A stretch of 64,000 nt of DNA from an uncultured Holophagales bacterium (lineage in GTDB: Bacteria; Acidobacteriota; Thermoanaerobaculia; Multivoradales; UBA5704). Positions 10,879 through 49,269 of the stretch are shown here, one piece after another. The translations under genes were made by a program, and so were the position numbers. How positions within the stretch are numbered: position 1 is the first letter of the stretch; the number at the start of each line of letters is the position of its first letter. The stretch is from contig CAWJGT010000001.1 of the NCBI GenBank assembly GCA_963842525.1, forward strand, positions 726,215 through 790,214, given 5' to 3'. The notes under the pieces are model-generated. The model was not told the DNA's origin, made no database searches, and saw only the letters and a program-made list of their open reading frames with translations.

Positions 10879-12543
10879 TCAGTCCTCCACGGTGAATTCG
10901 TAGAAGAGGTCGTTGAAGACCGACCGATCGAGGAACTGATCCCATTTCTCTTTCGACAGCACCTGCGGGCTGGGCTGCGCCACGGCGCGGTCCATGACGA
11001 AGACGCGGCCCTTGGCTTTTTCGAGCAGCGCCTTGTAGATGGCCGGCAGCGGATGGACCCAGGGATCGGGTTTCAACGCCAGCGCCCATTTTTCATTGGC
11101 CGGGATCATGGCCACGAACTGGTCCGCGAGCTCCCCCTGGGCCATCTCCCGCAGCCCGCCCTTGTTCATGGTTGCGTTGTGGCTGCCGTGGTGGCCGACC
11201 TTGTAGAACACCGTGCGGCCCAATAGATCGTTCACCGTCACTTCCTCGCCGCCGGCGAGCCCGTTGGCGGCGGTCCAGCCCTTCTCGGGCCACGAGACCC
11301 AGTTGCCCCGCTGGGCGTCGCCGACGAAAAGCAAAACCTTTTTCGTCCGCGGGAGCTCGATCGCCAGCACGAGGGACGTATTGTTGATGTAGTTGTTCAG
11401 GCGCAGGGCAAACTCCTCGGCGCCGCGCAGCCAATCGGCGTCGATCCTCCGCCAGCCCCGCTCGTCGTCGTCCGGGTACTCCTTGGCAAACCCATAGTAG
11501 GCTTCGAAGAACTCACCGTGCGCGGGGTGCTTCCCCGCGGCGCTCGCCGGGATGCGGTGCCGGGGCTCGAACGGCTGGTAGGCTTCCTGCTCGTCCGAGG
11601 TGCCGGCGGCGCCGGCAACCGCGGCGAGGAAGGACTGCTCCTCGGTTGCCGCGAAGTGGAACTCCTCTTCCCCCCGGGGATCCATGTCCTTCAGCCTGGC
11701 CTCGTTCTGCGGAGGGCCCAGCGCGAAGAAACGGATTCCCGGGACGTTGGGCAAGGTCCGCGGCGCGCTGTGCGGGCTCAAGTATTCCGTGCCTTGCCGC
11801 AGGTCCGCGCGCCGCTTGACGATCTGGATTCCCTCCTTGTTGGTGATCCCCTTGATCTTTCCCGGATCGGTGGCCGCGAGCCCCCGGTCTTCATCGGACA
11901 GCTCGAATTCGAGGAGGGCTTCGAGGGTGCTCCGCACCCGCTCGTCGAACGGGTCGCTGACTCCCTGGAGCCGGTCGGCCGCGGACACCAGACCGAGCAA
12001 GGTGTCTTTATATTTCCTGCGCATTTCGTTGGCGAAATCGTTCTCAGGGTCCTCGGTCCAGGCGAGCCACAGCTTGTCGATGGTCAAATTCTCGAAGACG
12101 GCCCTCTCCGAGCGGAACCCCGAGACGTGGTCCTCGTGCTCGTGGGTAACCGCCACCAGGTTGAGGTGGCCGCCGGTGGTATCCCGGATGTGTTCCGCCA
12201 CGTCCTTGATCGGGCGGACCAGCGTCGATCCCTTCTTCATTCCGCAGTCGATCAGCATATAGAACGGCTTGCCGTCATCCTGCCGGAAAGCGAGCAAAAA
12301 ACAGTCGCCGTGCCCCTGGCGGTACATGCGGACCTTGACTCCGGACCGGGGCGGCTCCATGACGACCGACGAGGCCGGCGGGGCGCCGGACCCCGCCGTC
12401 TCGGCAGGGCTCCGCACAGGGCTGCGCTTCGCGGCCGTCTTCTTCGACTTGGCGGCGCGTTTTGGAACAGTTTTTTTCGGCGCGCGTTTCGCGGCTGCCT
12501 TCTTCGGTGCGGGCTTGGGTTTCGCGGCTGCTTTTTTCGCCAT
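10879..12543 (-). CDS. MBL-fold metallo-hydrolase with an N-terminal lysine/alanine-rich histone-H1-like tail
   Basis: 'MAKKAAAKPKPAPKKAAAKRAPKK...' tail, then 'MLIDCGMKKG...VAVTHEHEDHVSG', which is an HxHxDH metallo-beta-lactamase-fold motif. Confidence 0.65.
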   Translation of the reverse strand: MAKKAAAKPKPAPKKAAAKRAPKKTVPKRAAKSKKTAAKRSPVRSPAETAGSGAPPASSVVMEPPRSGVKVRMYRQGHGDCFLLAFRQDDGKPFYMLIDCGMKKGSTLVRPIKDVAEHIRDTTGGHLNLVAVTHEHEDHVSGFRSERAVFENLTIDKLWLAWTEDPENDFANEMRRKYKDTLLGLVSAADRLQGVSDPFDERVRSTLEALLEFELSDEDRGLAATDPGKIKGITNKEGIQIVKRRADLRQGTEYLSPHSAPRTLPNVPGIRFFALGPPQNEARLKDMDPRGEEEFHFAATEEQSFLAAVAGAAGTSDEQEAYQPFEPRHRIPASAAGKHPAHGEFFEAYYGFAKEYPDDDERGWRRIDADWLRGAEEFALRLNNYINNTSLVLAIELPRTKKVLLFVGDAQRGNWVSWPEKGWTAANGLAGGEEVTVNDLLGRTVFYKVGHHGSHNATMNKGGLREMAQGELADQFVAMIPANEKWALALKPDPWVHPLPAIYKALLEKAKGRVFVMDRAVAQPSPQVLSKEKWDQFLDRSVFNDLFYEFTVED

Positions 12544-12562
12544 GGCGGTCCTCGCAATCAGA

Positions 12563-14539
12563 TCAGAAATCAGGGACTGCTACCGTGCGGCGGTGCACGG
12601 CCGCGAAATGCTCGCCGTCGAGGTCGACGGCCGGGGCGGCGCCGTAGAACGGGTTGTCGATCGCCCCCTCTTCGCCCTGGAGGAACCTGCGGACCCGGTC
12701 CAGCTCCTGGTTGTCGGCCACATCGCCGCGGGTCGAAATGGCGTAGCGGACACATTGCCGGGCCGGGTCGAGGATCAGGGTGCAGCCGCGCCGGAAGCGG
12801 AAATCCGGGGACTCGATCTTCCCATCCCCTTCGTCGACGGCCTTCTGGACCTCGGGGTCGAAGTACCCCCGCCGGCGCTGGCGGACCTCGACCACCAGGT
12901 CGGTGACCAGCGTGTCGCGGAAGCCGCGGCGGCGGGAGACCCGCACGGAATGCACCTCCAGCGAGGGAGTGCGGCCGTCCCGGCCCCGGTAGACCGAACG
13001 CGGTGCGCCGGGGTCCAGGGTCAGCCCGAAGGCAGCCAGTTGGCGCCGCATCGACTCCTGCATCAGCCAGAAGTAAGTGATCTTCGCGTTCTCCTCCATC
13101 GTGTCGAAGACCTTCTTGCGTTCCGTGGTCAGGTCCCAGTCGAGCGTCAGCTTCCCGACCTCCTTCTTGCCGTCCTTGCCGGCGGGCATCTCGATGCCCT
13201 CGAAAAGAGCCTTGGTTGCCGATTGATCGTAGGCGGCTTCACCCGCTCCGTCTTCGTCCAGCAGCGGGAAGCGGAGGTCGCTCTCCGCCATGCTCCGCAC
13301 TCCCTCGGGGTAGATCCCCCACTGCCGGAAGGCCTCGATGAACGCCACCCGCTGATTGTTCTGGTCATGGGGATAGACCTCGGTATCGGCGGTGACCACG
13401 GCCCGCAGGTAGGTGCCGAAATCGACGTCCACCGGCGGGCAATAATCGAGCCCACGAATGCACATGGTCAACACGGCGTCGGCGACCGCCGCAGCCTCCC
13501 GGGCCAGCCGGCGGACGAGATCGGGATGGATCTCCCCCTCGCGCAGGACGCCCGTGCCGTTGGTGGCAATGCGGAGGAGATCGGCGCTGCGCGCCTTGTA
13601 GATGGCCAGGAACGCCGAGAACACGGCGGCCAGCAGGATGCCGCCCCGGTCGTGCGGCAGGTGGGCCTCCTGCAGCCGCGCAGGATCGGGCTTGTGGGCC
13701 TCCCAGACCCCGTCCGCGTTCTTGCTCCCCAGCGCCTCGCGGAGGGCGCCGCGCTTCCCCAGGGCCTGGCCGAACTGCTGCGCCAGCTCGCCGAGCATGC
13801 TCTGCCGCTCCAGGTTGCCGCGGGTCCTGGCGATCTGGTGCGCGAGGATCTCCGGATGCGCAAAACGCTGGAAGATGGCCACGATGTCGGCGAACCCCTC
13901 GTGCAGCGCGTGCACGTCCGGGTTCGTAGCCTCGTTGAAGGAGGGGTGCAGCCCGTCGAGCAGCGCGTGCGTGGTCTCATGCGCCACCACGTCGTAGGAC
14001 AGGCTGGTGAAGACCATGCCGCCCGGCGCCTGCCCCGGTCCCCGGCCGCGGGTGGGAAAATACCCGAACAACAGCGCCTTCTTGCGCGGGCTGTAGTAGG
14101 CGTTGGCCTCCCGCAAAGCGTGCGGATAGATCCGCAGGCGGGGGACGAATTGCTCGCCGGTGACCTGGCCTTCCTTGTTGCGGATCACCCGCTTGGCCCA
14201 CAACGCCACCCGGCCGAGGGCCCGTTCGAAGTGGTCGATGGTGTTCATCGCCACGGCGTACACCATCTGCTGGTGGAACTGCGGCCCCCCTTCGGCCGGC
14301 GAGAGGCCGTCCTGAGCCAGTAGGAAGGGGTGATTCAGATCCACCGGGGCATAGAAGGCATCGCTGGCGGGGTCGAAATCCACCACCTCGATGTAGTCGC
14401 CGACCGGGCCGGGCTTCAGCCCCTCCTCCCAGGCCAGCTCCAGCGTCAGCTCGCTGATCGACAGGGTATCCAACTGCGCGCGGACGCCCGGATCAAAGGC
14501 GAACACCCGCAATCTGCGCTGAGCCGGCTTCTGGTTCAT
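12563..14539 (-). CDS. Thermolysin-like (M4-type gluzincin) zinc metallopeptidase with no obvious signal peptide
   Basis: 'VVAHETTHALLDG' followed about 20 aa later by 'HEGFADIVA' (HExxH...E spacing as in thermolysin). 'NAYYSPRKKALLFGYF' resembles thermolysin 'NAFWNGSQMVYGDG'. It lies 20 nt upstream of the MBL gene on the same strand. Confidence 0.6.
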   Translation of the reverse strand: MNQKPAQRRLRVFAFDPGVRAQLDTLSISELTLELAWEEGLKPGPVGDYIEVVDFDPASDAFYAPVDLNHPFLLAQDGLSPAEGGPQFHQQMVYAVAMNTIDHFERALGRVALWAKRVIRNKEGQVTGEQFVPRLRIYPHALREANAYYSPRKKALLFGYFPTRGRGPGQAPGGMVFTSLSYDVVAHETTHALLDGLHPSFNEATNPDVHALHEGFADIVAIFQRFAHPEILAHQIARTRGNLERQSMLGELAQQFGQALGKRGALREALGSKNADGVWEAHKPDPARLQEAHLPHDRGGILLAAVFSAFLAIYKARSADLLRIATNGTGVLREGEIHPDLVRRLAREAAAVADAVLTMCIRGLDYCPPVDVDFGTYLRAVVTADTEVYPHDQNNQRVAFIEAFRQWGIYPEGVRSMAESDLRFPLLDEDGAGEAAYDQSATKALFEGIEMPAGKDGKKEVGKLTLDWDLTTERKKVFDTMEENAKITYFWLMQESMRRQLAAFGLTLDPGAPRSVYRGRDGRTPSLEVHSVRVSRRRGFRDTLVTDLVVEVRQRRRGYFDPEVQKAVDEGDGKIESPDFRFRRGCTLILDPARQCVRYAISTRGDVADNQELDRVRRFLQGEEGAIDNPFYGAAPAVDLDGEHFAAVHRRTVAVPDF

Positions 14540-14839: not shown

Positions 14840-17564
<2,725 letters not shown>

Positions 17565-17624
17565 CTGCCTTTCGATGGTCCTTTCGAGACGAGGCGGAGC
17601 TACGCTCAGGATGTCCAGCGGAGA

Positions 17625-18332
17625 TCAGAGGATGGTACCCATCTTGTCCCAGGTCGTCGCATCGTAGCCGAGCACTGGCTGACCACTGGCGGAGACCGTG
17701 CTGAAATCCCAGGCGGCGGTCTTCGAGAACATCAGCTTGGCGATCGCTTTGCTTGCTCCAGACGCGAACTTGCCCTTGTACTCGTTCTCGTAGATGGTCC
17801 CGCGCGGCGCGCGGCCGGAGGCGAGGGTCAAACCGAAGCCGTAGAGATGGTTGATCTCCTGCGCCGTACATGGCACGATCGCATTTTCGAGGATCTCGAC
17901 TCCGTAGGTATCCTTGAGCAACCCTTTGAGGTCGGCGAGAGTCCGGAGGGCATGCCCACCTCCAAGGATCCCCACCACCTCGTCGTCTTCGGAGTCGCTC
18001 TGTCCACCACTCGCCGCCGCCACAGCAGCAGCGGAGCTCACGTGAGCACGTTGGATCGTGCCTCGGAAAACGCCATTCGTCCTCTGTGCGGTTTTCGCCT
18101 GAGCCATCCGCGCCAAGGCGCTTTGCACGTGTGGCGCAACAGGTCGCGCCGCCGCATGCGGAGTCTGGACCAGGTTTGATACCGCTGATGAAGACTGTGT
18201 CGCCGGCAATGACCTCTCCGGCATCTTTGCTTGAGCCATACCCGCGACGGCTGCCTGCACATGCGCAGCCGGAGCACGCGCCGGGACAAGTGGCAGATGC
18301 GACGGCATCGACGGCTTTCCTGGCATGGGCAA
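17625..18332 (-). CDS. Hypothetical protein with an N-terminal Pro/Ala-rich region carrying a repeated 'AAHVQAA(L/V)..MAQAK' motif and an unknown C-terminal domain
   Basis: 'APAAHVQAAVAGMAQAK' and 'PVAPHVQSALARMAQAK' repeats. The motif is shared with the N-terminus of the ART-like protein at 55748..56740. It is co-oriented with the SIR2 gene. Confidence 0.5.
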   Translation of the reverse strand: MPMPGKPSMPSHLPLVPARAPAAHVQAAVAGMAQAKMPERSLPATQSSSAVSNLVQTPHAAARPVAPHVQSALARMAQAKTAQRTNGVFRGTIQRAHVSSAAAVAAASGGQSDSEDDEVVGILGGGHALRTLADLKGLLKDTYGVEILENAIVPCTAQEINHLYGFGLTLASGRAPRGTIYENEYKGKFASGASKAIAKLMFSKTAAWDFSTVSASGQPVLGYDATTWDKMGTIL

Positions 18333-18504: not shown

Positions 18505-19627
18505 ATGTGGACATCCACCCGGTTCACGGAGCGGTTCGGCCGCCGCTATCCGATCGTGCAGGGGCCGATGGGGGGCGGCGCGTCGACGCCTGAGCTGGTG
18601 GCGGCGGTCTCGGGCGCAGGTGGGCTGGGATCGCTCGGCTGCTATCACCTGGAGCCCGCCGCGATCCTGCGCGCCGCGGCCGACATCCGGCGCCTGACCG
18701 ACGAGCCGTTTGCCCTCAACCTCTGGATCCCCCGCGAGCAGGAGGACGCCGGAAGCCCTACGACCCCTGTAGGGGCAACCCTTGTGGTTGCCCACGGTCC
18801 CGAGGCTGCCCGGGCCCTGACGCGTCTCCAGCCGTACCGGGACGAGCTCGGGCTGCCGCCCTTCACGGAGCCTCCGGCGCCCACCGTCCAGGACTTCGAG
18901 CTGCAGTTCGAACGCCGTGCTCGAAGCCCGGCCCGCTGCCTTCAGCTTCATCTTCGGTTTGCTGCCCGCGCCGATGGTGGCGGCGGCGCACCGGCGGGGG
19001 ATCGAGCTGATCGGCACTGCGACGACAGTCGACGAGGCCGAGGCCCTGGAGGCGAGCGGCGTCGACCTCGTGTGCGCCTCCGGGTTCGAGGCCGGGGGGC
19101 ACCGCGGCAGCTTCCTCCGTCCCGCGGAGCAGTCGCTCACCGGCACGCTGTCGCTCGTCCCCCAGGTCGTGAGCGCCGTGCGGGTTCCGGTGCTGGCCGC
19201 GGGCGGCATCGCCGACGGCCGCGGCGTTGCGGCGGCTCTGGTGCTCGGCGCCGAGGCGGCGCAGATCGGCACGGCCTTCCTGATGTGCCGGGAGTCCGGA
19301 GCGAGCGACCTCCATCGTGCTGCCCTCGCGGACCACGCTCGCGCGCGGCGCACCACCCTCTCCCGGGCCTACACCGGCCGGCTCGCGCGGATGCTCGCCA
19401 ACCGCTTCACGGACGAGATGGCTCAGCCCCCCACCGAGATCCTCCCCTGGCCGCACCAGAACGAGCTCACCCGGGAAGCTCGCCTTGCAGCGGCCCGCGA
19501 CGGCCGCGAGGACCTTCTGCCGTTTTACGGCGGCCAGTCGGCATCCCTGGCTTCCCCCGGTTCTGCCGCCGACCTCGTGGCAACCCTGGCCGCGGAGACC
19601 CGCGAAGCTTTCGAGCGGTCCGCGTAA
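18505..19627 (+). CDS. Nitronate monooxygenase (NMO / 2-nitropropane dioxygenase family); apparent frameshift near 18905-18915
   Basis: RBS aagggag, then 'MWTSTRFTERFGRRYPIVQGPMGGGASTPELVAAVSGAGGLGSLG'. The C-terminal part continues in another frame: 'LEARPAAFSFIFGLLP...DLVCASGFEAGGHRGSF...VPVLAAGGIADGRG'. Confidence 0.7.
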
Positions 19628-19639
19628 GGGGGCAGCCCC

Positions 19640-20150
19640 GAGCACTTCGCGCCGAACGTCGCAAACGGAGCTTCCTTTGCGACGAGTCAGCCATTCAGCA
19701 GCGCACCCAATCCATGTCTCGGCGCAAAGAAGCGATTCAGTGCGACGCGATAGAGATTCAGCGGTGCAAAGATCGATCTCGCGTCGCACTGGATCGATCC
19801 TTTGCGCCTCGATAAGCCTTCCTCGATTCCTGGATGGGTTTTGCGCCACGACGAAGCGCTACGCCGTCGCACGTAGACCTGCGACGGCGCAATAGAGTCG
19901 CACATCGGCGCAAAATAGACTCTCATCGCCTCGCTGTGCGCCAACAGAGCGACGACGAAGGCTTTGTCGTCGCAAATTATCGATAGAGAGTCGCAAAGGA
20001 TAGATTCGCGGCGCACTCTAGTCATCCAACGGCGCACTGAACGCTTCTTTGCGCCGGGCAAACGGATACTGCGTGACCCGCTGCCGTTGTCTGCGAGGCC
20101 CCGCCGGGCCTTTGCGCCAGCGGGTGTACAATGGAGCCTCGATCTGGAGC
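19640..20150. repeat. Intergenic array of short palindromes built on TGCGAC/GTCGCA and GGCGCAA/TTGCGCC cores
   Basis: For example, gtgcgacgcga...N28...tcgcgtcgcac, and cgccgtcgca-cgtagacc-tgcgacggcg. There are more than 15 occurrences of these cores within ~500 bp. Confidence 0.6.
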
Positions 20151-20157
20151 CCGCACC

Positions 20158-20553
20158 ATGAACCGTTTCCTTCGCCCGTTGCCCGCCCTTCTTGCCATCC
20201 TATGGCTCGCCGCCACCGCGCTATCCGCGCAGGAGACCGGCGACCGCGCCGGCGAGGCACCCTCGCGCCGTCACCATCGGTACCCACGGCCTCGTCGAAC
20301 GCGGCCAGGGGCCTCGAGGCCAGGGGCGGTGGCGAGGGTTCCCGATCAGCGTCAGCCTGCGCGACGCGCCGCTGCCGGAAGTCCTCCGCGCGTTCGCCCA
20401 AATCGCCGGCTTCAACCTGGTCCTCGACCCCAGGATCCCCCAGGGGACCGTGACGGTCGAGCTCAAAGACGTGCCCTGGGACCAGGCGCTGCACGTGATC
20501 CTCAAGACCCACGGCCTCGCAGCCGAGGTCGCGGCCGGTTGTGGTTGATCGCC
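20158..20553 (+). pseudogene. Small secretin-N/STN-like domain protein (signal peptide plus a PilQ-N0-like domain), broken by at least 2 frameshifts
   Basis: 'MNRFLRPLPALLAILWLAATALSAQE' in one frame. The domain 'ISVSLRDAPLPEVLRAFAQIAGFNLVLDPRIPQGTVTVELKDVPWDQALHVILKTHGLAAEV' is in another frame, with a third shift at the end. Confidence 0.5.
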
Positions 20554-20944
20554 CTTTAAAACGCCCTCACGGGCCTCTTCGGGAGTGGAGGAACGGTGCT
20601 GGGCAGCCTTGGATGAAGGGGTCCGGACGAGCGCACGGTCGACGGACGCCTCTCGACCGGGATCGTCAGGCCCGCCCTGACCTGAAGCTCTCCAAGGCGG
20701 GCGGAAAGGCTGCGGGGAGCGCTCTTCCGCCGATGGAGCGACCTGCGCTTGCTGGAACGGAGGAGAGGTCGGAGCAGCCAGTCCGGAAGCTCTGGGAGGT
20801 GCGCAGCCACGGCTGGATTCTCGCACACTGGGTTGGCGAAGTCTCCCGCAAAGATCTCAGCATCCAGGCACGATCCGCAGGAATCCCCGACGCTCAGCTC
20901 CTGATCCCTGCGGACGGGGAGGCTTTGGAACTCGTCCTCAGATC

Positions 20945-20980
20945 TTGACGCTAGTGCCCAGCAGACGCTAGTATTTTGGC
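20945..20980 (+). promoter_or_regulatory. Sigma70-like promoter candidate for the TIR operon (TTGACG-N18-TAGTAT) in a locally AT-richer stretch
   Basis: 'ttgacgctagtgcccagcagacgctagtatttt' lies ~50 nt upstream of the ATG at 21028. Confidence 0.3.
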
Positions 20981-21027
20981 ATACTCACTGCAGCACAGCT
21001 ACTCTTGGATGCCGAGGACCCGAAAGA

Positions 21028-22296
21028 ATGCCTTACGAATTTTTCTTCAGCTATACGCGGGCCAATAATGACGATTATCTCCGGAAATTCTTTGCCGAGC
21101 TGAACGACGCGGTCCGCCGCAAGGCCGGTTATCCCCAGGGGACCCTGACGGGCTTTTTCGACCAGAAGCGCCTCGAAGCGGGCACGGAATGGAACCAAGC
21201 CCTGGTCACCGCGCTCCAGGAAAGCGCGACCCTGGTCTGCGTCTACTCTCCCGCCTACTTCAAGAGCGAGTTTTGCGGACGGGAGTGGGGGGTTTTCGAG
21301 GAGCGCTGGCGGCTTCATGGGGCGCTTCGGCAGGCAGCAGATCCCGCAACCTCGGAGTGGCCCTCCGTTATCAAGCCTGTCCTCTGGATCCCGCTCCAGG
21401 AAGATCTCCCGGCCGGCGTTGGCAGCAAGCAGTTGGCTGGCGGCAACCCGCAGGGGGCGTTGAGCACGGTGGGTCTACTCAACATGCGGATGAGATATTC
21501 GAAGTACAGGATCGGTTATTTGGACTTCATCGACAAACTTGCGGATGAGATCCTGAAGGCCCGCGGTATTTATAAAGGCAAGCTGCCACGGGTGACTCCC
21601 GAGCCTGACTTCCGGACTTTCCAGAGCGCCTTTCACGCACCGCCGGCTCCTGGACAGGCTGCGGCTCCGAAGCCACAGGACCGTGGTCCCAATGGCGTCC
21701 AGTTCGTCTTCGTCGCCGGGAAACCTGACGAGTTGCGGGGGACCCGCAGCGTCGACAGCTACGAGCAGAAAGGGGGCAGGGATTGGAAACCCTATTACCC
21801 TCAAAAGCTCAGGCCTATCGGAGCCCTCGCTCAAGGCGTCGCCGCGAGCGAGGACCTCGACTTCTTCAGCGAGGAATTGCCCTTTAGCGCACAATTGCCC
21901 CAGGACGTGCGCAACGCCGAGAATCAGGCGAACATCGTGGTTTTAGTCGTCGACGGATGGACCGCTACATTGCCTTCCTACGATCAGATCCTCGAGCAGT
22001 TCGACAAGGAGGGCTACTTCAACTGCAGCGTCCTGGTCCCTTGGAACGACGCCGATGCCGAGACCGCCCAGCAGCGTGCCGCGCTCGAAGCCCAGGTCCG
22101 CAGCGTCTTCCGCCGGCACTCGAGACATCCGCTCTATTTCCGGGACGCCATCACATCGGAAGAAGATCTGAGGGAGCAGCTCCGTGACGTACTGATCCGC
22201 CTCAAGGCAGAGGTTTTCAACCAGGCCCCAGTGAGTCGGCCGGTGCCGAACGGCGGAGTCAAGCCCGTCGTCTCGGGTCCTGGAGGTGACCGGTGA
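21028..22296 (+). CDS. TIR-domain protein (N-terminal TIR, ~280-aa unknown C-terminal region)
   Basis: 'MPYEFFFSYTRANNDDYLRKFF...' (FxSY box) and 'SPAYFKSEFCGREW' (SxxYxxSxxCxxEW, with a candidate catalytic Glu). GC is visibly lower than in flanking genes. Its stop overlaps the start of the next gene (gtGA). Confidence 0.75.
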   Translation: MPYEFFFSYTRANNDDYLRKFFAELNDAVRRKAGYPQGTLTGFFDQKRLEAGTEWNQALVTALQESATLVCVYSPAYFKSEFCGREWGVFEERWRLHGALRQAADPATSEWPSVIKPVLWIPLQEDLPAGVGSKQLAGGNPQGALSTVGLLNMRMRYSKYRIGYLDFIDKLADEILKARGIYKGKLPRVTPEPDFRTFQSAFHAPPAPGQAAAPKPQDRGPNGVQFVFVAGKPDELRGTRSVDSYEQKGGRDWKPYYPQKLRPIGALAQGVAASEDLDFFSEELPFSAQLPQDVRNAENQANIVVLVVDGWTATLPSYDQILEQFDKEGYFNCSVLVPWNDADAETAQQRAALEAQVRSVFRRHSRHPLYFRDAITSEEDLREQLRDVLIRLKAEVFNQAPVSRPVPNGGVKPVVSGPGGDR

Positions 22297-25200
22297 GCAG
22301 CCGTCCTCCCGGCACGATCATCACTTTCTATTCCTACAAGGGCGGTACAGGCCGTTCCATGGCGCTCGCAAACATCGCCTGGATCCTGGCGTCCAGCCAC
22401 AAACGTGTACTGGTGGTGGACTGGGATCTCGAGGCTCCGGGCCTGCACCGCTATTTCCGTCCCTTCCTGCTCGACAAGCAGCTGAGCTCCTCCGCGGGGG
22501 TGATCGACTTCGTGATCGATTATGCGACCGAAGCGATCAAACCTGTCACAGAGGGAGAGCCGTTGCCCGACAACTGGTACATCGAGCAGGCCGACATCCT
22601 TCGTTATGCCATTACGCTCGACTGGGAGTTCCCATCGGGCGGCGTCCTCGACCTCATCCCAGCGGGCAGGCAGGGCCCGAGCTATGCCGCGCGTGTAAAC
22701 TCGTTCAACTGGCAGAACTTCTACGAGCGCTTGGGCGGCGGCCGGGTCCTGGATGCAGCCAGAGACCATATGCGGGCGGAGTACGACTACATTCTCATCG
22801 ACAGCCGGACGGGCGTCAGCGACACCTCCGGCATCTGCACCGTGCAAATGCCAGACGCTCTGGCGGTCTGCTTTACCTTCAACAATCAGAGCATCGAGGG
22901 AGCCGCCGCGGTGGCGCGCTCCGCTCATGAGCAGCAGGCCAAGCGCAGTGATCGCGCCTTCAGGGTCTTCCCCATTCCCATGCGGGTCGATGCGTCCGAA
23001 GTGGACAAGCTGAATACCCGGCGGCGCTACGCCTGGTGGATGTTCGACTCCCTGCTGAGCCACATCCCGAGTGCCGACCGCAGGCTCTATTGGGGCGAGG
23101 TCGAAGTGCCCTACATCCCGGTCTTCGCCTACGAGGAGATCCTCGCCTCCTTCCGCGAAGAGCCGAGCGATCCGAAGACCGCTCTCTCTGCCATGCTGCG
23201 GACCACCCGCCACCTGACCGGCGTCGGTGGCGAATACTCTTTTTCCATCTCACCCGAACAGCGGCAGGAGATCCTGGCGGAGTTCGCCAGCACTCCCGGG
23301 GAATTCGCGCTGGACAGCGCTCCTGTGATTCCAAAGGAGACGGCTGCCGAAGAGCAGACGCGGGTGGCCGAAGGCGCCTTTGCGTCTTTCTCTCCGCAGG
23401 AGCAGGCCGATCTCCGGCACCTCCTGACCCGTCTGGTGCGGATCGCCGGCGGGCCGGACGAGGCGGAGGGAGCTCACGGGCGGCTGCGAGTGAGAGTCCA
23501 GGATCTGGGTCCGGCAGCCCTCCCCCTCATTGACAGGCTCACAGCGCTGAGGCTCCTCACGGTACAAATGGAGGCCGGAACGAAGAGTGTGGAGCTCGCC
23601 GATGACGGACTCGCGCAGAGCTGGCCTCGCCTGCGCGACTGGATCGCGGGGGACCTCGAATTCCTTCTCTGGCGCCAGAGGCTGCGGGACCGTTGCCGGG
23701 ATTGGGAGAAGACCGATCACAGCAGCGACCTGCTGCTGCAAGGGTTGCCGTTGAGGGCAGCGCAGCGCTGGCTGCTGGAACGGGGAGCCGATCTCAACGA
23801 GGTGGAGACTGCCTTCATCCAGCAGTCTGCCGCGCTGGAATCCCGCTCGCAGTACTCATTTTCCGCCCGAGGCTTGCGAGCCTTCATCATCCGGCCGTTC
23901 GGCATCAAGCAGGAGATCGATTTCGACCGTGTGGAGAAGGAGCTGATCGATCCGGCTCTCAGCCAGCTCAATGTCGGGGGCCGGACAACGGTCGATATCC
24001 TGCGGGCAGGCAACATCCGGCTCGACATGTTCCAGCGGCTTCTCGCCGCCGATCTGGTCGTCGCGGATGTCTCGATCCATAACGCAAATGTCTTTTATGA
24101 GTTGGGCATCCGCCATGCCCTGCGGGATAAACGGACCTTCCTGCTGCGCTGCGAAGGCGATCAATATCCTTTCGATCTGCAGACCGATCGTTATTTTGTC
24201 TACCGGAAGGACAATCCAGCGGCCAGCCTGAGCCTGCTGACGACGGCTCTCGCGCGTACGATCACCTCCGAGGACATCGACAGTCCCGTCTTCCGGTCGC
24301 TCCCCGGCTTGAGGCAGCAGGACGGCTCGAGCCTCCTGGCGATCCCGCAGGATTTCATCGATGCCATCGAGCAGGCTGCGGCCACGCGCCAGCGTGGCGA
24401 CCTCGAGCTGCTTTCCGCGGAGATCCGGGACCTGGAATGGGCGCGCGGAGGACTGCGGATCATCGGCCGCAAGCAGTTTGATATCAAAGCCTATTCTGGA
24501 GCGCGGAGCACCTGGGAGGCAATCCGGAAGCTCGACCCGGATGACTTGGAGGCGAATACGCTGCTGGGAACCATTTACCAGCGCCTGGGAGAGCCCGTGA
24601 ACTCCGACCAAGCGATCCAGCGTGTCCTGCGCCACGATGAAGCAGCGGGAGACCAACGGGCCGAGGCTCTTGCCCTTCTCGCCCGTAATGCCAAGACCCG
24701 CTGGAGGGAGGAGTGGCACAGGCTCCCCTCCGAGCGCTTGCGTGAGGAGGCCTTGCGCTCCCCGTTCCTTGAGGAGTCTGCTCTCGCGTATATGCGAGCT
24801 TTCGAAGAATCCTTCAATCACTTCTACCCGGGCCTGAACGCGCTGGCAATGCTTACGGTTCAAATGGAGCTGGCGAGCGCTTTGCCGGAGATCTGGTTCG
24901 AGCGCTTCGATCAAGAAGAGGATGCCCGGAGGGAGATCGAAAGGAGAAACGAGCAGATCCGCAAGATCGCCTCTGCCGTGGAGCTGTCTCTGGCGGCAGC
25001 CAAGTCGCGCCTTGAGCGCCGGCAGGAAAGCGACATTTGGGTGGAGATCAGCGAGGCCGACTTTATCTGCCTGACCTCGAACCGACCGCGACGGGTCGCC
25101 GATGCCTATCGCAAGGCTCTGGCGAGCGTCCCGGATTTTGCCATCGATGCGATCAACGGCCAGCTCAGGATGTACCAACTGCTTGGAGTCCTGAGCGCCA

Positions 25201-25880
25201 ACGTCGAGGCTGCTCTTTCCATACCCACCTTTACCAGGCTCGGGCCAGAGACGCCGCAACCCGCCGGAGAACGGCCGCGCGCCCTTCTTTTCACCGGCCA
25301 TAGGATCGACGCCCCCGGCCGCGAGGAGCCGCGCTTCCCACCCGACAAGGAAAGTGTCGCCCGGGAACAGATCCAAAGCGCGGTGGCCGCCGAGATGGCG
25401 CGGCCGGGAGGCGTAGCCTATGGAATCGCGGGCGGGGCGAGCGGCGGCGACATCCTCTTCCACGAGGTCTGCGCCGACCTGGGAATGTCTACCCGTCTCT
25501 ACCTCGCACTGCCGAAAGGCGACTATATCGTCGAGTCGGTTCAGTCGGCCGGGCCTGAGTGGGTCGAACGCTTCAACCAGCTCTACCAGAAACATCCGGA
25601 GGTGCGCGTGCTCTCCCCCTCTTCGGACCTCCCGCGGTGGCTCAGCGAGAGACCCGGCCAATATTCAATCTGGCAACGTAACAACCTGTGGATGCTCTAC
25701 AACGCGCTCGCGGAGGACAACAAAGACCTGACCTTGATCGCCCTCTGGGATGGTAAGGAGGGCGACGGGCCCGGCGGCACGGGAGACCTCGTCACCAAGG
25801 TCAAGGAACGCGGCGCCAAAGTGATCCACCTGAACACCGAGGCGATTTTCGTCACCTACTCAACGGAGCCCGCATCATGA
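22293..25880 (+). CDS. 1195-aa multidomain protein: ParA/MinD-like P-loop ATPase, helical linker, TIR-like/deoxyribosyltransferase-like Rossmannoid domain, TPR-like helices, and a C-terminal SLOG/LOG-like domain
   Basis: Walker A '[18 protein letters not shown]', '[13 protein letters not shown]', Walker B '[14 protein letters not shown]'. Middle domain 'AFIIRPFG...[28 protein letters not shown]'. C-terminus '[16 protein letters not shown]' and '[16 protein letters not shown]', which resembles the LOG motif PGGxGTxxE. Confidence 0.7.
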
Positions 25881-26017
25881 GCCGTTTCCTTCGCCCGTTG
25901 CCCGCGGTCGAGCTCAAGAACGTGCCCTGGGACCAGGCTCTGCACGTGATCCTCAAAACCCACGGCCTCGCAGCCGAGGTCGACGGCCGGTTGTGGCTGA
26001 TCGCGCCGCCCCGCTAA
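25877..26017 (+). CDS. 46-aa chimeric mini-ORF: an in-frame, internally deleted (91-codon) copy of the secretin-N gene at 20158
   Basis: '[46 protein letters not shown]'. Positions 25865-25905 match 20146-20186, and 25906-26003 match 20455-20553. Confidence 0.45.
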   Translation: MSRFLRPLPAVELKNVPWDQALHVILKTHGLAAEVDGRLWLIAPPR

Positions 26018-26037
26018 GGGCCTGTCCCACGAGCGCC

Positions 26038-26364
26038 ATGGATCACCCCGCCGCTTTCCGCCCCGAGGACCACGCCGTCTACGGCTCCGGCAAGATGGGC
26101 AAGGCCACGCTCTTCCAGTCCGACCGGCTCCTGGTGGGCCTGAACGCCTTCGAGCCGGGCCAGGAGCACCGCCTGCACGGCCACGCCGGCATGGACAAGG
26201 TCTACCATGTCCTCGCCGGCCGCGGCGTCTTCCTGCTCGAGGGGCGCGAGGAGCCCATGGCGGCGGGCACCATGCTCATCGCTCCCGAAGGGGTCCTCCA
26301 CGGCATCCGCAACACCGGCGACGAGCGCCTGCTGGTCCTCGCCATCCTGGCGCCCTCGCCTTGA
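26038..26364 (+). CDS. Cupin-domain protein
   Basis: 'GQEHRLHGHAGMDKVYHVLAGRGVFLLEGRE...IAPEGVLHGIRNTG', a cupin two-motif pattern. Confidence 0.6.
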   Translation: MDHPAAFRPEDHAVYGSGKMGKATLFQSDRLLVGLNAFEPGQEHRLHGHAGMDKVYHVLAGRGVFLLEGREEPMAAGTMLIAPEGVLHGIRNTGDERLLVLAILAPSP

Positions 26365-26412
26365 GGGCGGCGCTCCGCAGTTTCCCCCATTTCGCCGCGC
26401 CAGGGCCGTCTA

Positions 26413-28266
26413 TCAGCCCTGGTCCAGGTGTCCCGTGGCCGAGTCGCCCATTTCGACCCGCCCGTCGGGAAAGTACTCCCGCCAGCGGCGGGTCACGGTG
26501 GCCGCGGTCTCCTCGTCGGCGAAGAGCTCCTTGGGGAACCACGGCTTCATCCGGGCGTCGAGGAGGATAGGTGCCTTGTAGGAAAGGTGATGGCGGACCA
26601 CCGTGGTGCCCGCGGCATGGAGGTCCGCCGCGGGCTCGAAGCGGGTGAAGGTGGCCCAGAGGAAATTGATCGGGCTCGCGGCGGCGCGGCGCGGCTCGTC
26701 GGTCAGCACCAGGAGCGGCCAGCCGGCAAAAGCAGGATGACCGGCGAAGCGCGCCGCGGCCCCGGGGTCCTCCGCATACGAGGGTCCTCCCAGGATCAGG
26801 CAGCCCGGGCAGAAGACCCGCACGTCGGTTACACCCTGGGGGACCTCGGCGGCCGTGAATTCGCGCGGCAGCTCCCGCACCGGATCGCCGAGGCCGAGCC
26901 AGACCCCCTTCGAGCCCTGATTGACCGCCGGGCCTGTGTAATCGAGCGTATCCATCGAGAGGTTCGAGAGCACATAGAGGTCCGTCTCAGGGTGGGTGCG
27001 CTCCAGGATGTGCTGGAGCGTGCGCGGAAAATCCTTCAAATCGACAGGCCGATCGGTCACCAGGAGGAACTTGGTCAGCGAGAGCTGCCCTTCGCCGAGG
27101 ATGCGGAAGGCGCTCGCCATGGCCTCCCGCCCATAGCGCTGCTTGACGACCGCCGCGGCCAATGAGTGATAGCCGGTCTCGCCGTAGGACCACAGCGACT
27201 CGACCGCCGGCATGACCAGGGGGAAGAGCGGCGACAGCAGCTCCTGGAGCAAATCGCCGATAAAAAAATCCTCCTGCCGCGGCTTGCCCACCACGGTCGC
27301 CGGATAGATCGCGTCCTTGCGCCGGGCCATCCGCCGCACGTGGAAGACCGGATAATCGTGCTGGAGCGAGTAGTAGCCATAGTGATCGCCGAACGGGCCT
27401 TCCGGCCGCCGCTCGCGCGGAGGGACCTCGCCGATCAGCGCGAATTCGGCCGAGGCGACCAGCGGGTGCGGCCCGGGGCCGGGCGCCACGAGCCGCAGCC
27501 GCTCGCCGGCGATCAGCGAGGCGAGCATCAGCTCGGGGACGTTCTCCGGGAGCGGCGCGACCGCGGCCAGGATCAGGGCCGGCGGGCCGCCGAGGAACAC
27601 GGTCGCCGGCAGGCTCTGCCCCCGCGACTCGGCCACGGCATAGTGGAAGCCGCCGCCCTTGCCGATCTGCCAGTGCATGCCGGTCGTCCGCGGGCCGTGG
27701 ACGTGGAGGCGGTACATCCCCAAGTTGTGCCGCTTGGCGTCCGGCCGGCTGTCCGGGTGCTCGGTGTAGACGAGAGGCAGGGTGACGAACGGGCCGCCGT
27801 CCTCCGGCCAGGTGGTGAGGACCGGCAGGCGATCGAGCCGGACGTCATCTGTCACGACCTCGGCGACCGGCCCGGAGCGCATCCTCCTGGAGCCGATCCG
27901 CAGGGCCTCCCGTCCGATGTCGCGCGCGCCCCAGAGCTTGCCGGGCGTCGGCGGCAGCAGCGTCTCGGCGAGATGGACCAGCCGCCGGATCAGGCGCAGC
28001 GGCCGGGTGCCGAACGCCAGCTCGGCCCGCCGCGCCGTGCCGAAGAGGTTGGTCGCCAGCGGAAAGTCGGACCCACGGACGTTGGTGAACAGCAGCGCCG
28101 GCCCGCCCGCCGCGATCACCCGGCGATGGATCTCCGACGCTTCGAGCCGTGCATCCACCGGCGCCTCGACCACGGCGAGGTCGCCGTCCCGGCGGAGCTG
28201 GTCGAGGAAGGCACGGAGGTCGGGGAACGTCGGCTCGCTCACGGCGGTGAGTGTATCCGACCTCAC
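26413..28266 (-). CDS. UbiD-family decarboxylase
   Basis: 617 aa with a UbiD-like layout: 'PALLFTNVRGSDFPLATNLFG', 'WQIGKGGGFHYAV', 'GPFGDHYGYY'. Confidence 0.7.
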   Translation of the reverse strand: MRSDTLTAVSEPTFPDLRAFLDQLRRDGDLAVVEAPVDARLEASEIHRRVIAAGGPALLFTNVRGSDFPLATNLFGTARRAELAFGTRPLRLIRRLVHLAETLLPPTPGKLWGARDIGREALRIGSRRMRSGPVAEVVTDDVRLDRLPVLTTWPEDGGPFVTLPLVYTEHPDSRPDAKRHNLGMYRLHVHGPRTTGMHWQIGKGGGFHYAVAESRGQSLPATVFLGGPPALILAAVAPLPENVPELMLASLIAGERLRLVAPGPGPHPLVASAEFALIGEVPPRERRPEGPFGDHYGYYSLQHDYPVFHVRRMARRKDAIYPATVVGKPRQEDFFIGDLLQELLSPLFPLVMPAVESLWSYGETGYHSLAAAVVKQRYGREAMASAFRILGEGQLSLTKFLLVTDRPVDLKDFPRTLQHILERTHPETDLYVLSNLSMDTLDYTGPAVNQGSKGVWLGLGDPVRELPREFTAAEVPQGVTDVRVFCPGCLILGGPSYAEDPGAAARFAGHPAFAGWPLLVLTDEPRRAAASPINFLWATFTRFEPAADLHAAGTTVVRHHLSYKAPILLDARMKPWFPKELFADEETAATVTRRWREYFPDGRVEMGDSATGHLDQG

Positions 28267-28546
28267 CCCCTGTCCCCATGCGCTTTAACTTACCCCCGGG
28301 ACGTGCCAGATCGCCCAAGGTTCACACCCGGGGCTACCCAGTTCCGCCCTCCGGGCTCTCGAATCCTGGGCACTTCGACCAACATTCTTGCGAGCCCGGA
28401 GGGCGCCATTCGGTAGCCCAGGGTGTGAACCCTGGGCGGGAGCTTCGATCGTCATCCGCACCATACGAGCCTCCTTGACCATTTCCACCTTACCACGGAG
28501 GGATGAGGCTGTATCCTTGTGCGGCCCTGAGCAAGGAGCCCGATCC

Positions 28547-31039
28547 ATGGCCGAAGCCCTGCCCGCCCCGATCCATGAGCCTGCCGAAGCTCCCGAGCCG
28601 CGCCGTCCCTGGCGCGCCCTCCGGCGGGCCGGCCTGGCCATCCTCCTCCTGCTCGGCATCCTGACGATCGCCCTGGCGGCCGGCACCCTGTGGGTCCGTT
28701 CCAGAGTGGAGGCCAGCCTCCCCCAGCTCGACGGCGAGCGGGCGATCCCCGGCCTGGCGGGGCCGGTGACCATCGACCGGGACGCCCTCGGCGTGCCCAC
28801 GATCCGGGCTGCAAACCGGCAGGATACCGCGCGGGCCCTGGGCTTTCTTCATGGCCAGGAGCGCTTCTTCCAGATGGACCTCCTGCGCCGACAGGCTGCC
28901 GGCGAGCTCGCCGAGCTGTTCGGCCCCGCGGTCGTGGACAACGACCGGCTCAACCGCGTCCACCGGTTTCGCGCGGTGGCCCGCCGGACCATTGCCGGCT
29001 CCACAGCCGCGGAGCGGGCCCTCATCCAGGCCTATGCCGATGGGGTCAACGCCGGCCTCGCAGCCCTGGGAGAAAAACCTTTCGAATACCTCGCAACGCG
29101 CACCGAGCCGGCGCCCTGGAAGCCCGAGGACACGATCCTCGCCTCGTTCGCCATGTTCATCGAGCTGCACGACGAGGACGGCAGCCGCGAATCGGACCTC
29201 GGTCTGATGAAGGACCTGCTGCCCGCACCACTGTTCCAATTCCTTGCCCCGATCGGAACGGAATGGGATGCGCCGCTCGTCGGCCAGCCGTTCGCCACGC
29301 CGCCGATCCCCGGCGCTGAAATCTTCAACCTGCGGGGCCATCCGTCGCATCTGCCGAAGGCGGCGGCGCTCGATCCGGTCGCCCCCGCTCACCCCGGGTT
29401 GACACCCGGGCGGGCCCTCGGCAGCAACAACTGGGCAGTCGCCGGCGCGCACACGGCCGACGGCCGCGCCCTGGTCGCCAACGACATGCACCTCGGCATC
29501 GCGGTGCCCAACACCTGGTACCGGGCCTCCCTCGTCCTGCCGGACGGCGCCGGCGGCACAACCCGCATCACCGGCGTGACCCTCCCCGGCACACCCGTGG
29601 TCGCGGTGGGAAGCAACGGCCACGTCGCCTGGGGATTCACCAACAGCTACGGCGACTGGACCGACCTCGTCGTCCTGGAGGTCAATCCCGGGAACTCCGA
29701 GGTCTACCGCACGCCGCAGGGACCACGTCGTTTCGAACGCGCGGTCGAGCACATCCGCGTCAAGGGCGGACCGGACGAGACGCTCGAGGTCCGCGAAACG
29801 ATCTGGGGACCGGTGATCGACAAGGACCATCGCGGCCGGCCGCGCGCTTTCGCCTGGACCGCCCACCGTGCCGAGGCGGTCAACCTCGGCCTCCTGGGCC
29901 TGGAAACAGCCCGCACGGTCGACGAGGCCCTGGCGGTCGCCCACCGCACCGGCATCCCGCCGCAGAACTTCGTGGTGGCCGACGCGACAGGACGGATTGC
30001 CTGGACGATCATCGGCAGGATGCCGCGCCGCATCGGTTTCGACGGCCGGACGCCAATGTCCTGGGCCGACGGCGCGCGCCGCTGGGACGGCTGGCTCGCG
30101 CCGGACGAGGTCCCGCAAATCGTCGATCCGCCCGCCGGCCGGATCTGGACCGCCAATGCCCGTGTGGTCGACGGCGCCATGCTGGAGAAGCTGGGCGACG
30201 GCGGCTATGACCTGGGCGCGCGGGCACGACAGATCCGCGACGACCTGTTCGCCGTCGAAAAGGCCACGCCGCGGGACCTGCTCGCCATCCAGCTCGACGA
30301 TCGCGCCCTGCTTCTGGAGCGCTGGCGGACGCTCCTGCTGGACACCGTGACCGCGCGATCCGTGGCCTCGCTCCCCGCGCGCGGCGAGCTGCGGCAGGTC
30401 GTCGAAGAGAGCTGGACCGGCCACGCCTCGACCGGCTCGGCGGGATACCGGATCGTCCGGACCTTCCGGTACCTCGTGGCGGAACGCGCTTTCGACCCGC
30501 TCATCGCCCCCTGCATGACCGCGGACGACCGGTTCGACGGCCTGTCACGCCAATTCGAAGGGCCGCTCTGGAAGCTGGCCACCGAGCGTCCCACCTGGCT
30601 GCTCGACCCACGATACGGGAGCTGGAACGACCTCCTGCTGGAAGCGGCCGATGCGACGGTGGCCGACTTCGCCGGTCAGGAGGGGACCCTGGCCGACCGG
30701 ACCTGGGGAGAGCGCAACACCACCCGCATCCGGCACCCGCTCTCCCGCGCCGTCCCCTTCCTCGGCCGCTGGCTCGACGTGCCGCCGCGTCCGCTCCCCG
30801 GCGACGAGGACATGCCGCGCGTCCAGAGCCGCGCCATGGGCGCCAGCGAGCGCCTCGTGGTCTCCCCCGGCCAGGAGGACAAGGGCTTCTTCCACATGCC
30901 GGTCGGCCAGAGCGGCCATCCGCTCTCCCCCCACTACCAGGCCGGCAACAAGGCCTGGGAAGAAGGCCGGCCGACTCCCTTCCTGCCCGGGAAGACCGAG
31001 CACACCCTGCGGCTGGTGCCCATATCGGGCCGGTCCTGA
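28547..31039 (+). CDS. Penicillin-acylase-family Ntn-hydrolase (possibly an acyl-homoserine-lactone acylase)
   Basis: N-terminal TM/signal 'AGLAILLLLGILTIALAAG'. Nucleophile motif 'GSNNWAV'. Confidence 0.75.
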   Translation: MAEALPAPIHEPAEAPEPRRPWRALRRAGLAILLLLGILTIALAAGTLWVRSRVEASLPQLDGERAIPGLAGPVTIDRDALGVPTIRAANRQDTARALGFLHGQERFFQMDLLRRQAAGELAELFGPAVVDNDRLNRVHRFRAVARRTIAGSTAAERALIQAYADGVNAGLAALGEKPFEYLATRTEPAPWKPEDTILASFAMFIELHDEDGSRESDLGLMKDLLPAPLFQFLAPIGTEWDAPLVGQPFATPPIPGAEIFNLRGHPSHLPKAAALDPVAPAHPGLTPGRALGSNNWAVAGAHTADGRALVANDMHLGIAVPNTWYRASLVLPDGAGGTTRITGVTLPGTPVVAVGSNGHVAWGFTNSYGDWTDLVVLEVNPGNSEVYRTPQGPRRFERAVEHIRVKGGPDETLEVRETIWGPVIDKDHRGRPRAFAWTAHRAEAVNLGLLGLETARTVDEALAVAHRTGIPPQNFVVADATGRIAWTIIGRMPRRIGFDGRTPMSWADGARRWDGWLAPDEVPQIVDPPAGRIWTANARVVDGAMLEKLGDGGYDLGARARQIRDDLFAVEKATPRDLLAIQLDDRALLLERWRTLLLDTVTARSVASLPARGELRQVVEESWTGHASTGSAGYRIVRTFRYLVAERAFDPLIAPCMTADDRFDGLSRQFEGPLWKLATERPTWLLDPRYGSWNDLLLEAADATVADFAGQEGTLADRTWGERNTTRIRHPLSRAVPFLGRWLDVPPRPLPGDEDMPRVQSRAMGASERLVVSPGQEDKGFFHMPVGQSGHPLSPHYQAGNKAWEEGRPTPFLPGKTEHTLRLVPISGRS

Positions 31040-31047
31040 AAAGACCC

Positions 31048-32403
31048 GTGTCAGGCTCCTCCGATCAGCACCCCGCGGTTCGCAACGAGCAGGTGCTCGC
31101 GCGCCAGCTCTCGGCGGCCCAGCAGACGGCGATGGCGCTCGGCGGCGCGATCGGGACGGGCCTGTTTCTCGCCAGCGGCTTGTCGGTCAACGTGGCCGGA
31201 CCGGCCGTCATCCTGTCCTATGTGATCGTGGCCGGCATCTCGCTGCTCCTCGGACGCGCGCTGACCGAGATGGCAGTGGCCCATCCAACGGCGGGCGCCT
31301 TCGGCGTCTACGCCGGGATGTACATCTCGCCCTTCGCCGGCTACGCGGTGCGCTCGAGCTATTGGCTGATGGAGGTGATCGCGACCGGCGCGCAGTTGGT
31401 CGCCGCATCGATCTACATGAGCTACTGGTTTCCGGGGGCGCCCGGGGCCGTCTGGGTGCTCGCGTTCTCCGTTGTGCTCATGTACGTCAACTCGCGCGCG
31501 GTCGGCCGCTTGGGCACGATCGAGTCCTGGCTCGTCCTGATCAAAGTCGTCGCGGTGGCGCTGTTTGTCGGCCTCGCCGTGCTGATCGTGCTCGGCCTGA
31601 CCGGCAAGCCCGCGATCGGCCTCAGGAACCTCACCGGACAGGGCGGCTTCCTGCCCTTCGGCCTCCAAGGGGTCTGGCTCGGCTGCTGTTTCGTCATCTA
31701 CTCGTTCATCGGCGTCGAGATCGTCGGCGTCACCTCGGGCGAAGCGACCGACCCGGCCCGCACGATTCCAGCAGCCATGCGCCGCATGGTCCTCGGCCTG
31801 TCGGCGATCTACATCGTGACCATCGCGCTGCTGGTCGCCCTGACACCGTGGAACCGGCTAGGCATCGGCGAAAGCCCCTTCGTGAGCGTTCTGACGGAGA
31901 TCGGCATTCCCGGCGCCGCGGGTCTGATGAACTTTGTCGTGCTGAGCGCCGCGCTCTCGAGCGCGAACGCGAACCTCTACCTGATCACACGGGCACTGTT
32001 CTCGCTGGCGCGCGCCGGCTTCGTCTCCCCGGCGCTCGGCGCCGTGACCGGGCATGGCGCACCGGTCAACGCCTTGCTCGTGTCGGGCATCGGCCTTGGA
32101 GGGGCCGTGCTGGTTCGCGCGCTCTGGCCCGACTCGGCATACGTGTGGTTTTTCGGCGTCGCCCTCTTTGGCGCGCTGTTCGTCTGGCTGATGATCTTCG
32201 TGACGCACATCGCCTATCGCGCGTCCGCCGCCGGAGGCAAGACGGCTCCGCTGGGCTCCTACGCGGGAGCCGCCCTGATCGCCGCGATTCTGGCGTCCAC
32301 CTGGTGGGTCCCCGGCCTGCGGTCCACCCTGGTTGCCGGCGGCCCGTGGCTCCTGCTGTTGGCGATCGGCTATCGGTTGTCGGCCGCGCGGCGCGGCCCG
32401 TGA
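31048..32403 (+). CDS. APC-family amino-acid permease
   Basis: 12 hydrophobic segments, and 'AMALGGAIGTGLFLASG' near the N-terminus. Confidence 0.7.
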   Translation: MSGSSDQHPAVRNEQVLARQLSAAQQTAMALGGAIGTGLFLASGLSVNVAGPAVILSYVIVAGISLLLGRALTEMAVAHPTAGAFGVYAGMYISPFAGYAVRSSYWLMEVIATGAQLVAASIYMSYWFPGAPGAVWVLAFSVVLMYVNSRAVGRLGTIESWLVLIKVVAVALFVGLAVLIVLGLTGKPAIGLRNLTGQGGFLPFGLQGVWLGCCFVIYSFIGVEIVGVTSGEATDPARTIPAAMRRMVLGLSAIYIVTIALLVALTPWNRLGIGESPFVSVLTEIGIPGAAGLMNFVVLSAALSSANANLYLITRALFSLARAGFVSPALGAVTGHGAPVNALLVSGIGLGGAVLVRALWPDSAYVWFFGVALFGALFVWLMIFVTHIAYRASAAGGKTAPLGSYAGAALIAAILASTWWVPGLRSTLVAGGPWLLLLAIGYRLSAARRGP

Positions 32404-37590: not shown

Positions 37591-37744
37591 CACGGGCACT
37601 AGTCTACCGGACCCCCCAGAGGTGTGCCAACCGTTCCCCAGCCGGCGCCCTTCTTGCCGGACAAGACCGAGCACACCTACGGCTGGTGCCGGGGCCGGGA
37701 TGAGCTTGCTTCGCCGACGGCTCGCGCTGTGCCACCGGTCCGGA

Positions 37745-49239: not shown

Positions 49240-49269
49240 GTGGGCGCGGTGGCTTACCCGGCGGCACCA

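Follow-up and report, generated by a model that had tools for sequence, protein, structure and literature searches.

An uncultured Holophagales bacterium (Acidobacteriota, Thermoanaerobaculia) carries a two-gene, immune-type cassette between two direct copies of a small gene for a secretin/TonB N-terminal (STN) domain protein. The copies lie in a window of 64,000 nt, the whole stretch of DNA analyzed here (assembly GCA_963842525.1, contig CAWJGT010000001.1, positions 726,215 to 790,214); we call the full-length upstream copy U and the shortened downstream copy D. Between them stand a gene for a TIR-domain protein and a gene for a 1195-amino acid (aa) protein with ParA/MinD-like, nSTAND1 and TPR-S regions. 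We hypothesize, giving this slightly better than an even chance, that the locus is an ordinary recombination scar, unusual in shape, of a homology-anchored acquisition in which the resident STN copy was displaced and then decayed.

An STN gene, its remnant and the DNA between them

U and D share two blocks of sequence (Table 1). Repeat A holds the ribosome-binding site (RBS), the start codon and the first nine codons (BLAST E 2e-13 within the window), and repeat C, aligned with one gap, holds the last ~33 codons of the STN domain (E 6e-39). These matches are real and far beyond chance, and no third copy of either repeat was found in the 64 kb. D is an open reading frame (ORF) of 46 codons (25877-26017) that stays in frame across the junction of the two blocks and ends LWLIAPPR-stop. 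Absent from it is the stretch 20187-20454 of U, which amounts to 268 nt in the DNA as assembled and to 267 nt, or 89 codons, in the intact gene, so that only STN family residues 1-9 and 101 to the end are retained. The longest identical run between the copies, counted with a missing A of U restored (see below), is 39 nt.

An earlier sequence-only reading of this DNA had described two direct copies of a small secretin-N-like gene, the second of them an exact 91-codon (273-nt) in-frame deletion derivative with about 5.7 kb between the two. Both copies are indeed STN genes and bracket the TIR/STAND cassette, repeats A and C stand on alignment (the latter with the ends given in Table 1), and the start codon of D does overlap the TGA of the 1195-aa gene, as ATGA. 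The middle of the gene has been removed in frame as described, but the deletion measures 89 codons and the DNA between the copies only 5,312 nt (20553-25864).

The gene itself belongs to a conserved family of small, secreted STN/N0-domain proteins of the Thermoanaerobaculia. U matches the Pfam STN model (E 5.5e-9) and GspD N0 (E 8.6e-6), and 243 homologues were found in 5.8 billion proteins, the best of them 77-86% identical and nearly all 130-138 aa long; those that come with a source name are labelled Thermoanaerobaculia. Their alignment shows a signal peptide, a linker rich in glycine and a C-terminal half that is strongly conserved, with the signature ELKDVPWDxAL...AEVDGRLW. With its two indels set aside, U fits this ~134-aa family in signal peptide, STN/N0 domain and C-terminus, at 83-84% aa identity to the ~134-aa homologues. 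A scan of genome contigs with a profile of the STN alignment gave only distant secretin N0 domains (<=55% identity) among the matches listed, and exact look-ups of the STN ORF of the window and of the 1195-aa gene returned no record.

The cassette is compositionally foreign. Its GC content is 0.626, against 0.70-0.73 for the surrounding NMO, cupin, UbiD and penicillin amidase genes, and GC at third codon positions is 0.74-0.78 in the TIR gene and the large gene, against 0.86-0.91 in their neighbours. Among 5-kb segments, 20001-25000 has a tetranucleotide distance to the window mean of 0.241, second to the 0.243 of 47501-52500. The visibly lower GC claimed from the letters alone was borne out by direct count, and the promoter-like start claimed for the cassette also found support in a promoter scan, which placed a sigma-70-like site (TTGACG-18-TAGTAT, 20945-20974) ahead of the TIR gene. 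The only long ORF of the ~470-nt leader has no Pfam match. Neither the leader nor the upstream intergenic region is similar to any fetched locus, and the leader is not homologous to that of L167, the locus with the closest cassette (homologous loci are cited by such numbers throughout).

In the 1195-aa protein PADLOC recognizes a TIR effector model at residues 559-638, which Pfam missed, and PDC-M28B at the N-terminus; the conserved C-terminal ~235 aa (residues 960-1195) have no Pfam match. PADLOC matches to the pair as a whole (TIR plus ParA/nSTAND1/TPR-S) are partial only. The domains and the conserved pairing are confirmed, and the label of a defence cassette seems a reasonable inference from these domains. 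The TIR gene and the large gene recur as a two-gene unit in L167 (76% nt identity over 21023-25838) and in L168. These loci have unrelated contexts, with no STN gene or fragment at the cassette ends, and they indicate that the cassette moves independently of the STN gene.

The right junction can be placed closely. Full-length homologues of the 1195-aa protein measure 1176-1223 aa and stop 1-12 residues from a conserved "...LF"; the window protein runs on with VTYSTEPAS-stop, of which the last five codons and the stop (TEPAS-stop) are read from the leader and RBS of D. The junction accordingly lies at the very end of the large gene, which is essentially complete and takes its stop codon from D.

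Table 1. Coordinates of the STN locus and of the tandem arrays (positions in the window unless another locus is named)
Feature	Position	Strand	Remarks
TACAAT box of promoter motif gTACAATgg	20127..20132	+	Ahead of U; conserved upstream of STN in relatives
Upstream copy U	20146..20559	+	RBS GGAG 20146, ATG 20158, stop TAA 20557-20559
Repeat A in U	20146..20186	+	RBS, start codon, first 9 codons; 39/41 identical to 25865-25905
Repeat C in U	20454..20552	+	Last ~33 codons of STN domain; 94/100 identical to 25905-26004
Non-coding leader of cassette	20553..21027	+	Starts at end of U/D homology
TIR-domain protein gene, 422 aa	21028..22296	+	Pfam TIR_2, E 5.5e-10; paired with large gene in L167 and L168
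1195-aa gene	22293..25880	+	ParA/MinD-like P-loop, nSTAND1, internal TIR-like region, TPR-S, C-terminal domain without family (Pfam)
Downstream remnant D	25861..26017	+	Truncated leader caac, RBS 25865, ATG 25877, stop 26015-26017
D, continued			Deletion junction of A and C 25905/25906; native end IAPPR-stop; 3' end as L169 up to 26011
Cupin gene, right neighbour	26038..26364	+	Pfam Cupin_2; homology block starts 10 nt past D stop
Tandem arrays	L084 9546-9833; L001 13501-13958; L172 15595-15830; L174 8241-8567; L089 20621-21168; window 704-930, 51535-51830

Frameshifts in U and the quality of the assembly

In the assembled sequence U contains a surplus G at 20256/7, and the A of a GTCGAC is missing at 20531/2 (both indels placed against six relatives); the two cancel, so that a wrong-frame ORF stays open. 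The frameshifts that the sequence-only reading saw in U are present in the assembled letters, but at least half of that observation is an artefact. A Logan short-read contig, L178 (ERR11593888), corresponds to window positions 20516-23045 and over 2,531 nt shows a single difference, in that it has the missing A. It reproduces the junction between the 3' end of U and the cassette exactly, and it breaks inside the 39-nt run common to U and D, as expected with both copies in the reads; the extra G and D lie outside its range. Because L178 carries the A, the frameshift at 20531/2 is an assembly error or a strain variant.

Two further genes of the window are frameshifted, NMO at ~18912 and an FG-GAP gene at ~33255. 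Three of the four frameshift sites lie no more than 7 nt from a TCGA, and 15% of the window lies that close to one. This pattern suggests that long-read basecalling systematically errs at a methylated TCGA motif, and the NMO and FG-GAP "pseudogenes" may be artefacts as well. Because the missing A is present in L178 and the TCGA pattern looks like motif-linked long-read error, U is probably intact, the functional gene and not a pseudogene. The locus also shows that what looks like a pseudogene in this assembly can be no more than an error of sequencing.

Proposed acquisition of the cassette and the alternatives

The copies are ~5% diverged, with seven substituted positions and one indel, and their ends are not alike. 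The promoter motif gTACAATgg ahead of U also precedes the STN gene in L002, L084, L169, L172 and L174; no such box was found upstream of D, whose STN-like sequence starts at about -16 (caacGGAGCCC, as in L001) and gives way further upstream to the coding end of the large gene. At the other end D is long, with the IAPPR-stop of homologues P0001 and P0047, and matches L169 to 26011, seven bases past the end of U/D homology at 26004; it retains the ancestral 3' end. U ends short, with IAL-stop, which resembles the IAP-stop of L002. Four of the six coding differences are synonymous, and several variant states are shared with different relatives. U and D are not recent duplicates of one another. 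Given the mostly synonymous differences and the variant states found also in different relatives, two alleles that diverged while each was a working gene are a better fit than a recent copy made in place, although the numbers are small.

We hypothesize that a DNA segment arrived from a related strain, bringing its own STN allele (U, with its promoter and short 3' end) together with the TIR/ParA-nSTAND1-TPR-S cassette. Entry at one end would have used homology within the STN gene or upstream of it; at the other, the end of the large gene would have been joined illegitimately to position -16/-17 of the resident leader. The resident copy would have been pushed downstream with loss of its promoter, and would then have lost 267 nt by a microhomology-poor deletion that by chance was in frame, leaving the 46-codon D; U would have stayed the working gene. 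This, the simplest account, requires a single homologous exchange, a single illegitimate join and a single subsequent deletion. The route may have been homology-facilitated illegitimate recombination of a linear fragment or Campbell-type single crossover of a circularised one; the data do not separate the two.

The locus has the marks of a homology-anchored insertion: two diverged copies around foreign DNA, one junction without homology and no recombinase. The recurrence of the cassette in other contexts and the turnover of cargo beside the STN gene in relatives (see below) speak for it as well. The earlier proposal that the repeats mark the insertion route of the cassette is plausible on this footprint, and so is the companion proposal that they would permit its excision by homologous recombination. 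The 41-nt and 99-nt repeats, with a longest identical run of 39 nt, could still recombine, which would remove the cassette and leave a restored full-length gene beside the cupin gene.

Insertion at a conserved anchor, with the resident gene or its 3' part pushed downstream, is known from the effector-immunity arrays of type VI secretion systems (T6SS) and from Rhs orphans (PMC5361080). Homology-facilitated illegitimate recombination is proposed to create such displacement arrays, with their orphan immunity genes and orphaned 3' parts, in the V. cholerae T6SS and in Rhs and contact-dependent inhibition (CDI) loci (PMC5361080). The likeness lies in the incoming conserved anchor with non-homologous cargo, the truncated resident remnant downstream and the absence of a recombinase gene (PMC5361080). 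However, the anchor here is a small secreted STN gene and not a toxin, the cargo is a TIR/STAND conflict-system pair, a single displacement is seen, the remnant is internally deleted and not 5'-truncated, and the mechanism is one that we infer. Campbell-type integration likewise places an insert between two direct hybrid copies and can be reversed by recombination, but in its simple form it yields two full-length copies. Because D has neither the promoter nor 89 internal codons, this route would call for at least one more deletion and for one illegitimate join in circularisation.

Several points weigh against a homology-anchored acquisition, or against the order of events given above. No empty site and no donor arrangement of STN gene and cassette was found in close relatives, among 80 UbiD loci and six STN, three cupin and two cassette contexts whose synteny with the window is insufficient; because of this, we can only infer in which direction and order the events ran. 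The synonymous excess is drawn from six substitutions (P about 0.05), and the short 3' end of U could be an insertion junction instead of an allele. The join close to the RBS in the leader of D and the in-frame deletion are both taken as chance outcomes tolerated by selection. Finally, the structure comes from one assembly, and the independent contig L178 spans the junction of U with the cassette and not D.

An alternative that we regard as unlikely is that the STN gene was duplicated in tandem in situ, that the copies diverged over a long time, and that the cassette inserted between them before the second copy decayed. Such a history would leave two copies in one orientation and no other duplication, as is seen here, and the flank of the STN gene does hold variable cargo in relatives. 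L001 and L172 are syntenic and ~90% identical at the nucleotide level, yet their cargo (3.8 vs 4.2 kb) differs completely from 5 nt past the STN stop, and the toxin-antitoxin modules upstream of the gene differ as well. Because these two loci carry different cargo right after the STN stop, the flank is a turnover hotspot in at least one lineage. However, a tandem duplication sits poorly with the different 3' ends and with a promoter on one copy only; mostly synonymous divergence of ~5% with states shared with relatives fits allelic histories, whereas linked paralogues would be homogenised by gene conversion; and the STN gene is single-copy in all six distinct neighbourhoods of relatives.

Insertion of an integrase-driven, site-specific island at the 3' end of the STN gene, with repeat C as attL/attR and the island carrying a mini-copy of its target, seems improbable and was set aside. 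As in attL/attR islands, the cargo is of lower GC and adjoins the 3' end of a protein-coding gene, that end is part of the direct repeats, and the target stays open, the upstream gene keeping a stop one codon past the junction. But Pfam scans of the called ORFs, in the island and throughout the 64 kb, found no integrase, excisionase, transposase, reverse transcriptase or IntI-like gene; the repeats are imperfect (94-95% identical) and have no short identical core that we could recognize; the downstream repeat includes an RBS and nine codons from the 5' end of the gene, which an att site does not explain; and the cassettes of L167 and L168 have no STN fragments at their ends. No inverted repeats were found at the cassette ends (20553/25864) either. 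Because integrase, att-type core and terminal inverted repeats are all lacking, the cassette is not a classical self-mobile island. A transposon or insertion sequence was rejected for want of an inverted-repeat pair and a transposase, and a diversity-generating retroelement because the window has no reverse transcriptase and the mismatches between the repeats (A/G, G/A, G/T, G/A, T/C) are not adenine-specific. With regard to an integron gene cassette, the window has no IntI-like ORF; a search of 19500-26200 against Rfam gave noise only and no match to an RNA or structure family.

That the arrangement is an assembly artefact, a two-strain chimera or mis-join in a long metagenome-derived contig, we consider very improbable. 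Indel errors do occur, one of them proven by L178 and three of the four frameshift sites being near TCGA, and the source proteins occur in a single contig of 808,628 nt. But a 267-nt internal deletion and a leader join are atypical of consensus errors, and L178 has the exact junction between U and the cassette and breaks in the shared 39-nt run.

Hardly credible, in turn, is D as a functional small gene translationally coupled to the large gene, for example an STN-derived regulator or decoy. Its frame is intact, it has an RBS and a start-stop overlap, and the retained part still matches the STN model (E 3e-7); yet the core of the signal peptide and the first half of the domain are missing from it, and the cassette homologues in L167 and L168 have no such gene. 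The idea of a conserved mini-protein was dropped: the 46-aa product is a singleton among 15 billion proteins, and no fusion of the N-terminal nine residues to the C-terminal part, of the type that joins A to C, was found among 131 matches in 1.8 billion representatives (HMMER).

The surrounding mosaic and the meaning of the locus

If, as we favour, the cassette entered by homology at the STN gene, it did so in a region that reads as a mosaic of gene-sized blocks with tight junctions. The relatives examined share no local gene order with the window beyond single genes, STN with the permease and UbiD with penicillin amidase. In the 80 UbiD loci (72-86% identity) the synteny of penicillin amidase and UbiD is kept in several, and none has a cupin, STN or NMO gene nearby. 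Cupin homologues with 95% aa identity stand in another context (M19 peptidase, cupin, membrane protein), with DNA homology confined to 26028-26364. In L169-171 an amino-acid permease gene follows the STN gene directly, with an ATGA overlap and 93% DNA identity to window 31061-32403. Compared with L169 (4262-4280), the window also has the cupin-UbiD-penicillin amidase block (26012-31060, 5 kb, with host-like GC) inserted between STN gene and permease, a second rearrangement at that 3' end of the gene. The window permease has a new GTG start, taken from this block.

The neighbours of the STN gene in relatives include toxin-antitoxin pairs, a TIR-NB-ARC-TPR gene and many small genes of no assigned kind. 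Hotspots of defence islands bounded by conserved core genes are known from enterobacteria, Pseudomonas and Vibrio. The STN locus is like them in that a conserved gene edges a region that differs between close relatives (L001 vs L172) and is rich in toxin-antitoxin and immune-type genes. It differs in that the bounding gene is normally not duplicated, whereas here a second, gutted copy records the event.

Repetitive DNA is a further feature of these neighbourhoods. In the 518-nt spacer that separates NMO from the STN promoter, [G/T]CGCA[A/C] occurs 19 times at 19640-20070 against 1.45 expected, with a periodicity of 21 nt; the spacer resembles a tandem array of some 20 units that has decayed. 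The intergenic DNA of relatives contains clear tandem arrays with units of 19-21 nt and other sequences: in L084-86 one stands immediately upstream of the STN gene, and in L001 one of 20 nt x 22.6 belongs to the variable cargo. Their spacing of two helical turns suggests protein-binding arrays.

Other parts of the window also hold genes of immune or toxin-antitoxin type. A second low-GC island (15912-18332, GC 0.60) encodes a 550-aa SIR2_2 protein with weak ThsA/LmuA-type PADLOC matches and a 235-aa protein without family; no direct repeats or STN fragments were found to flank it (15.9-18.4 kb), and a weak STN match at 15674-15775 was rejected as chance, lying within a gene for an OYE-type oxidoreductase on the opposite strand. 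A minus-strand pair at 10879-14539, which may be another conflict system, consists of a 554-aa metallo-beta-lactamase-fold protein (Lys/Ala-rich N-terminus; PADLOC matches to LmuA and Avs1a-type nucleases) and a 658-aa protein without family. A toxin-antitoxin-type cluster at 36855-38789 comprises a HEPN/nucleotidyltransferase pair, YoeB/Phd-YefM and a further Pol-beta-type nucleotidyltransferase.

A bolder idea, rather unlikely in our view, is that in Thermoanaerobaculia the STN gene serves as a portable landing pad, and that immune cargo travels from strain to strain linked to an STN allele which gives it homology for integration. If so, each arrival would displace the resident copy, the STN flank would be a dedicated site at which defence genes are exchanged without a recombinase, and the fossil record of this exchange would consist of remnants like D. 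Homology-anchored acquisition as proposed here reveals no new mechanism, and the locus would be useful as an example of it at a variable hotspot: a base-resolved footprint of an immune gene pair that probably entered an uncultured acidobacterial genome without integrase or transposase.

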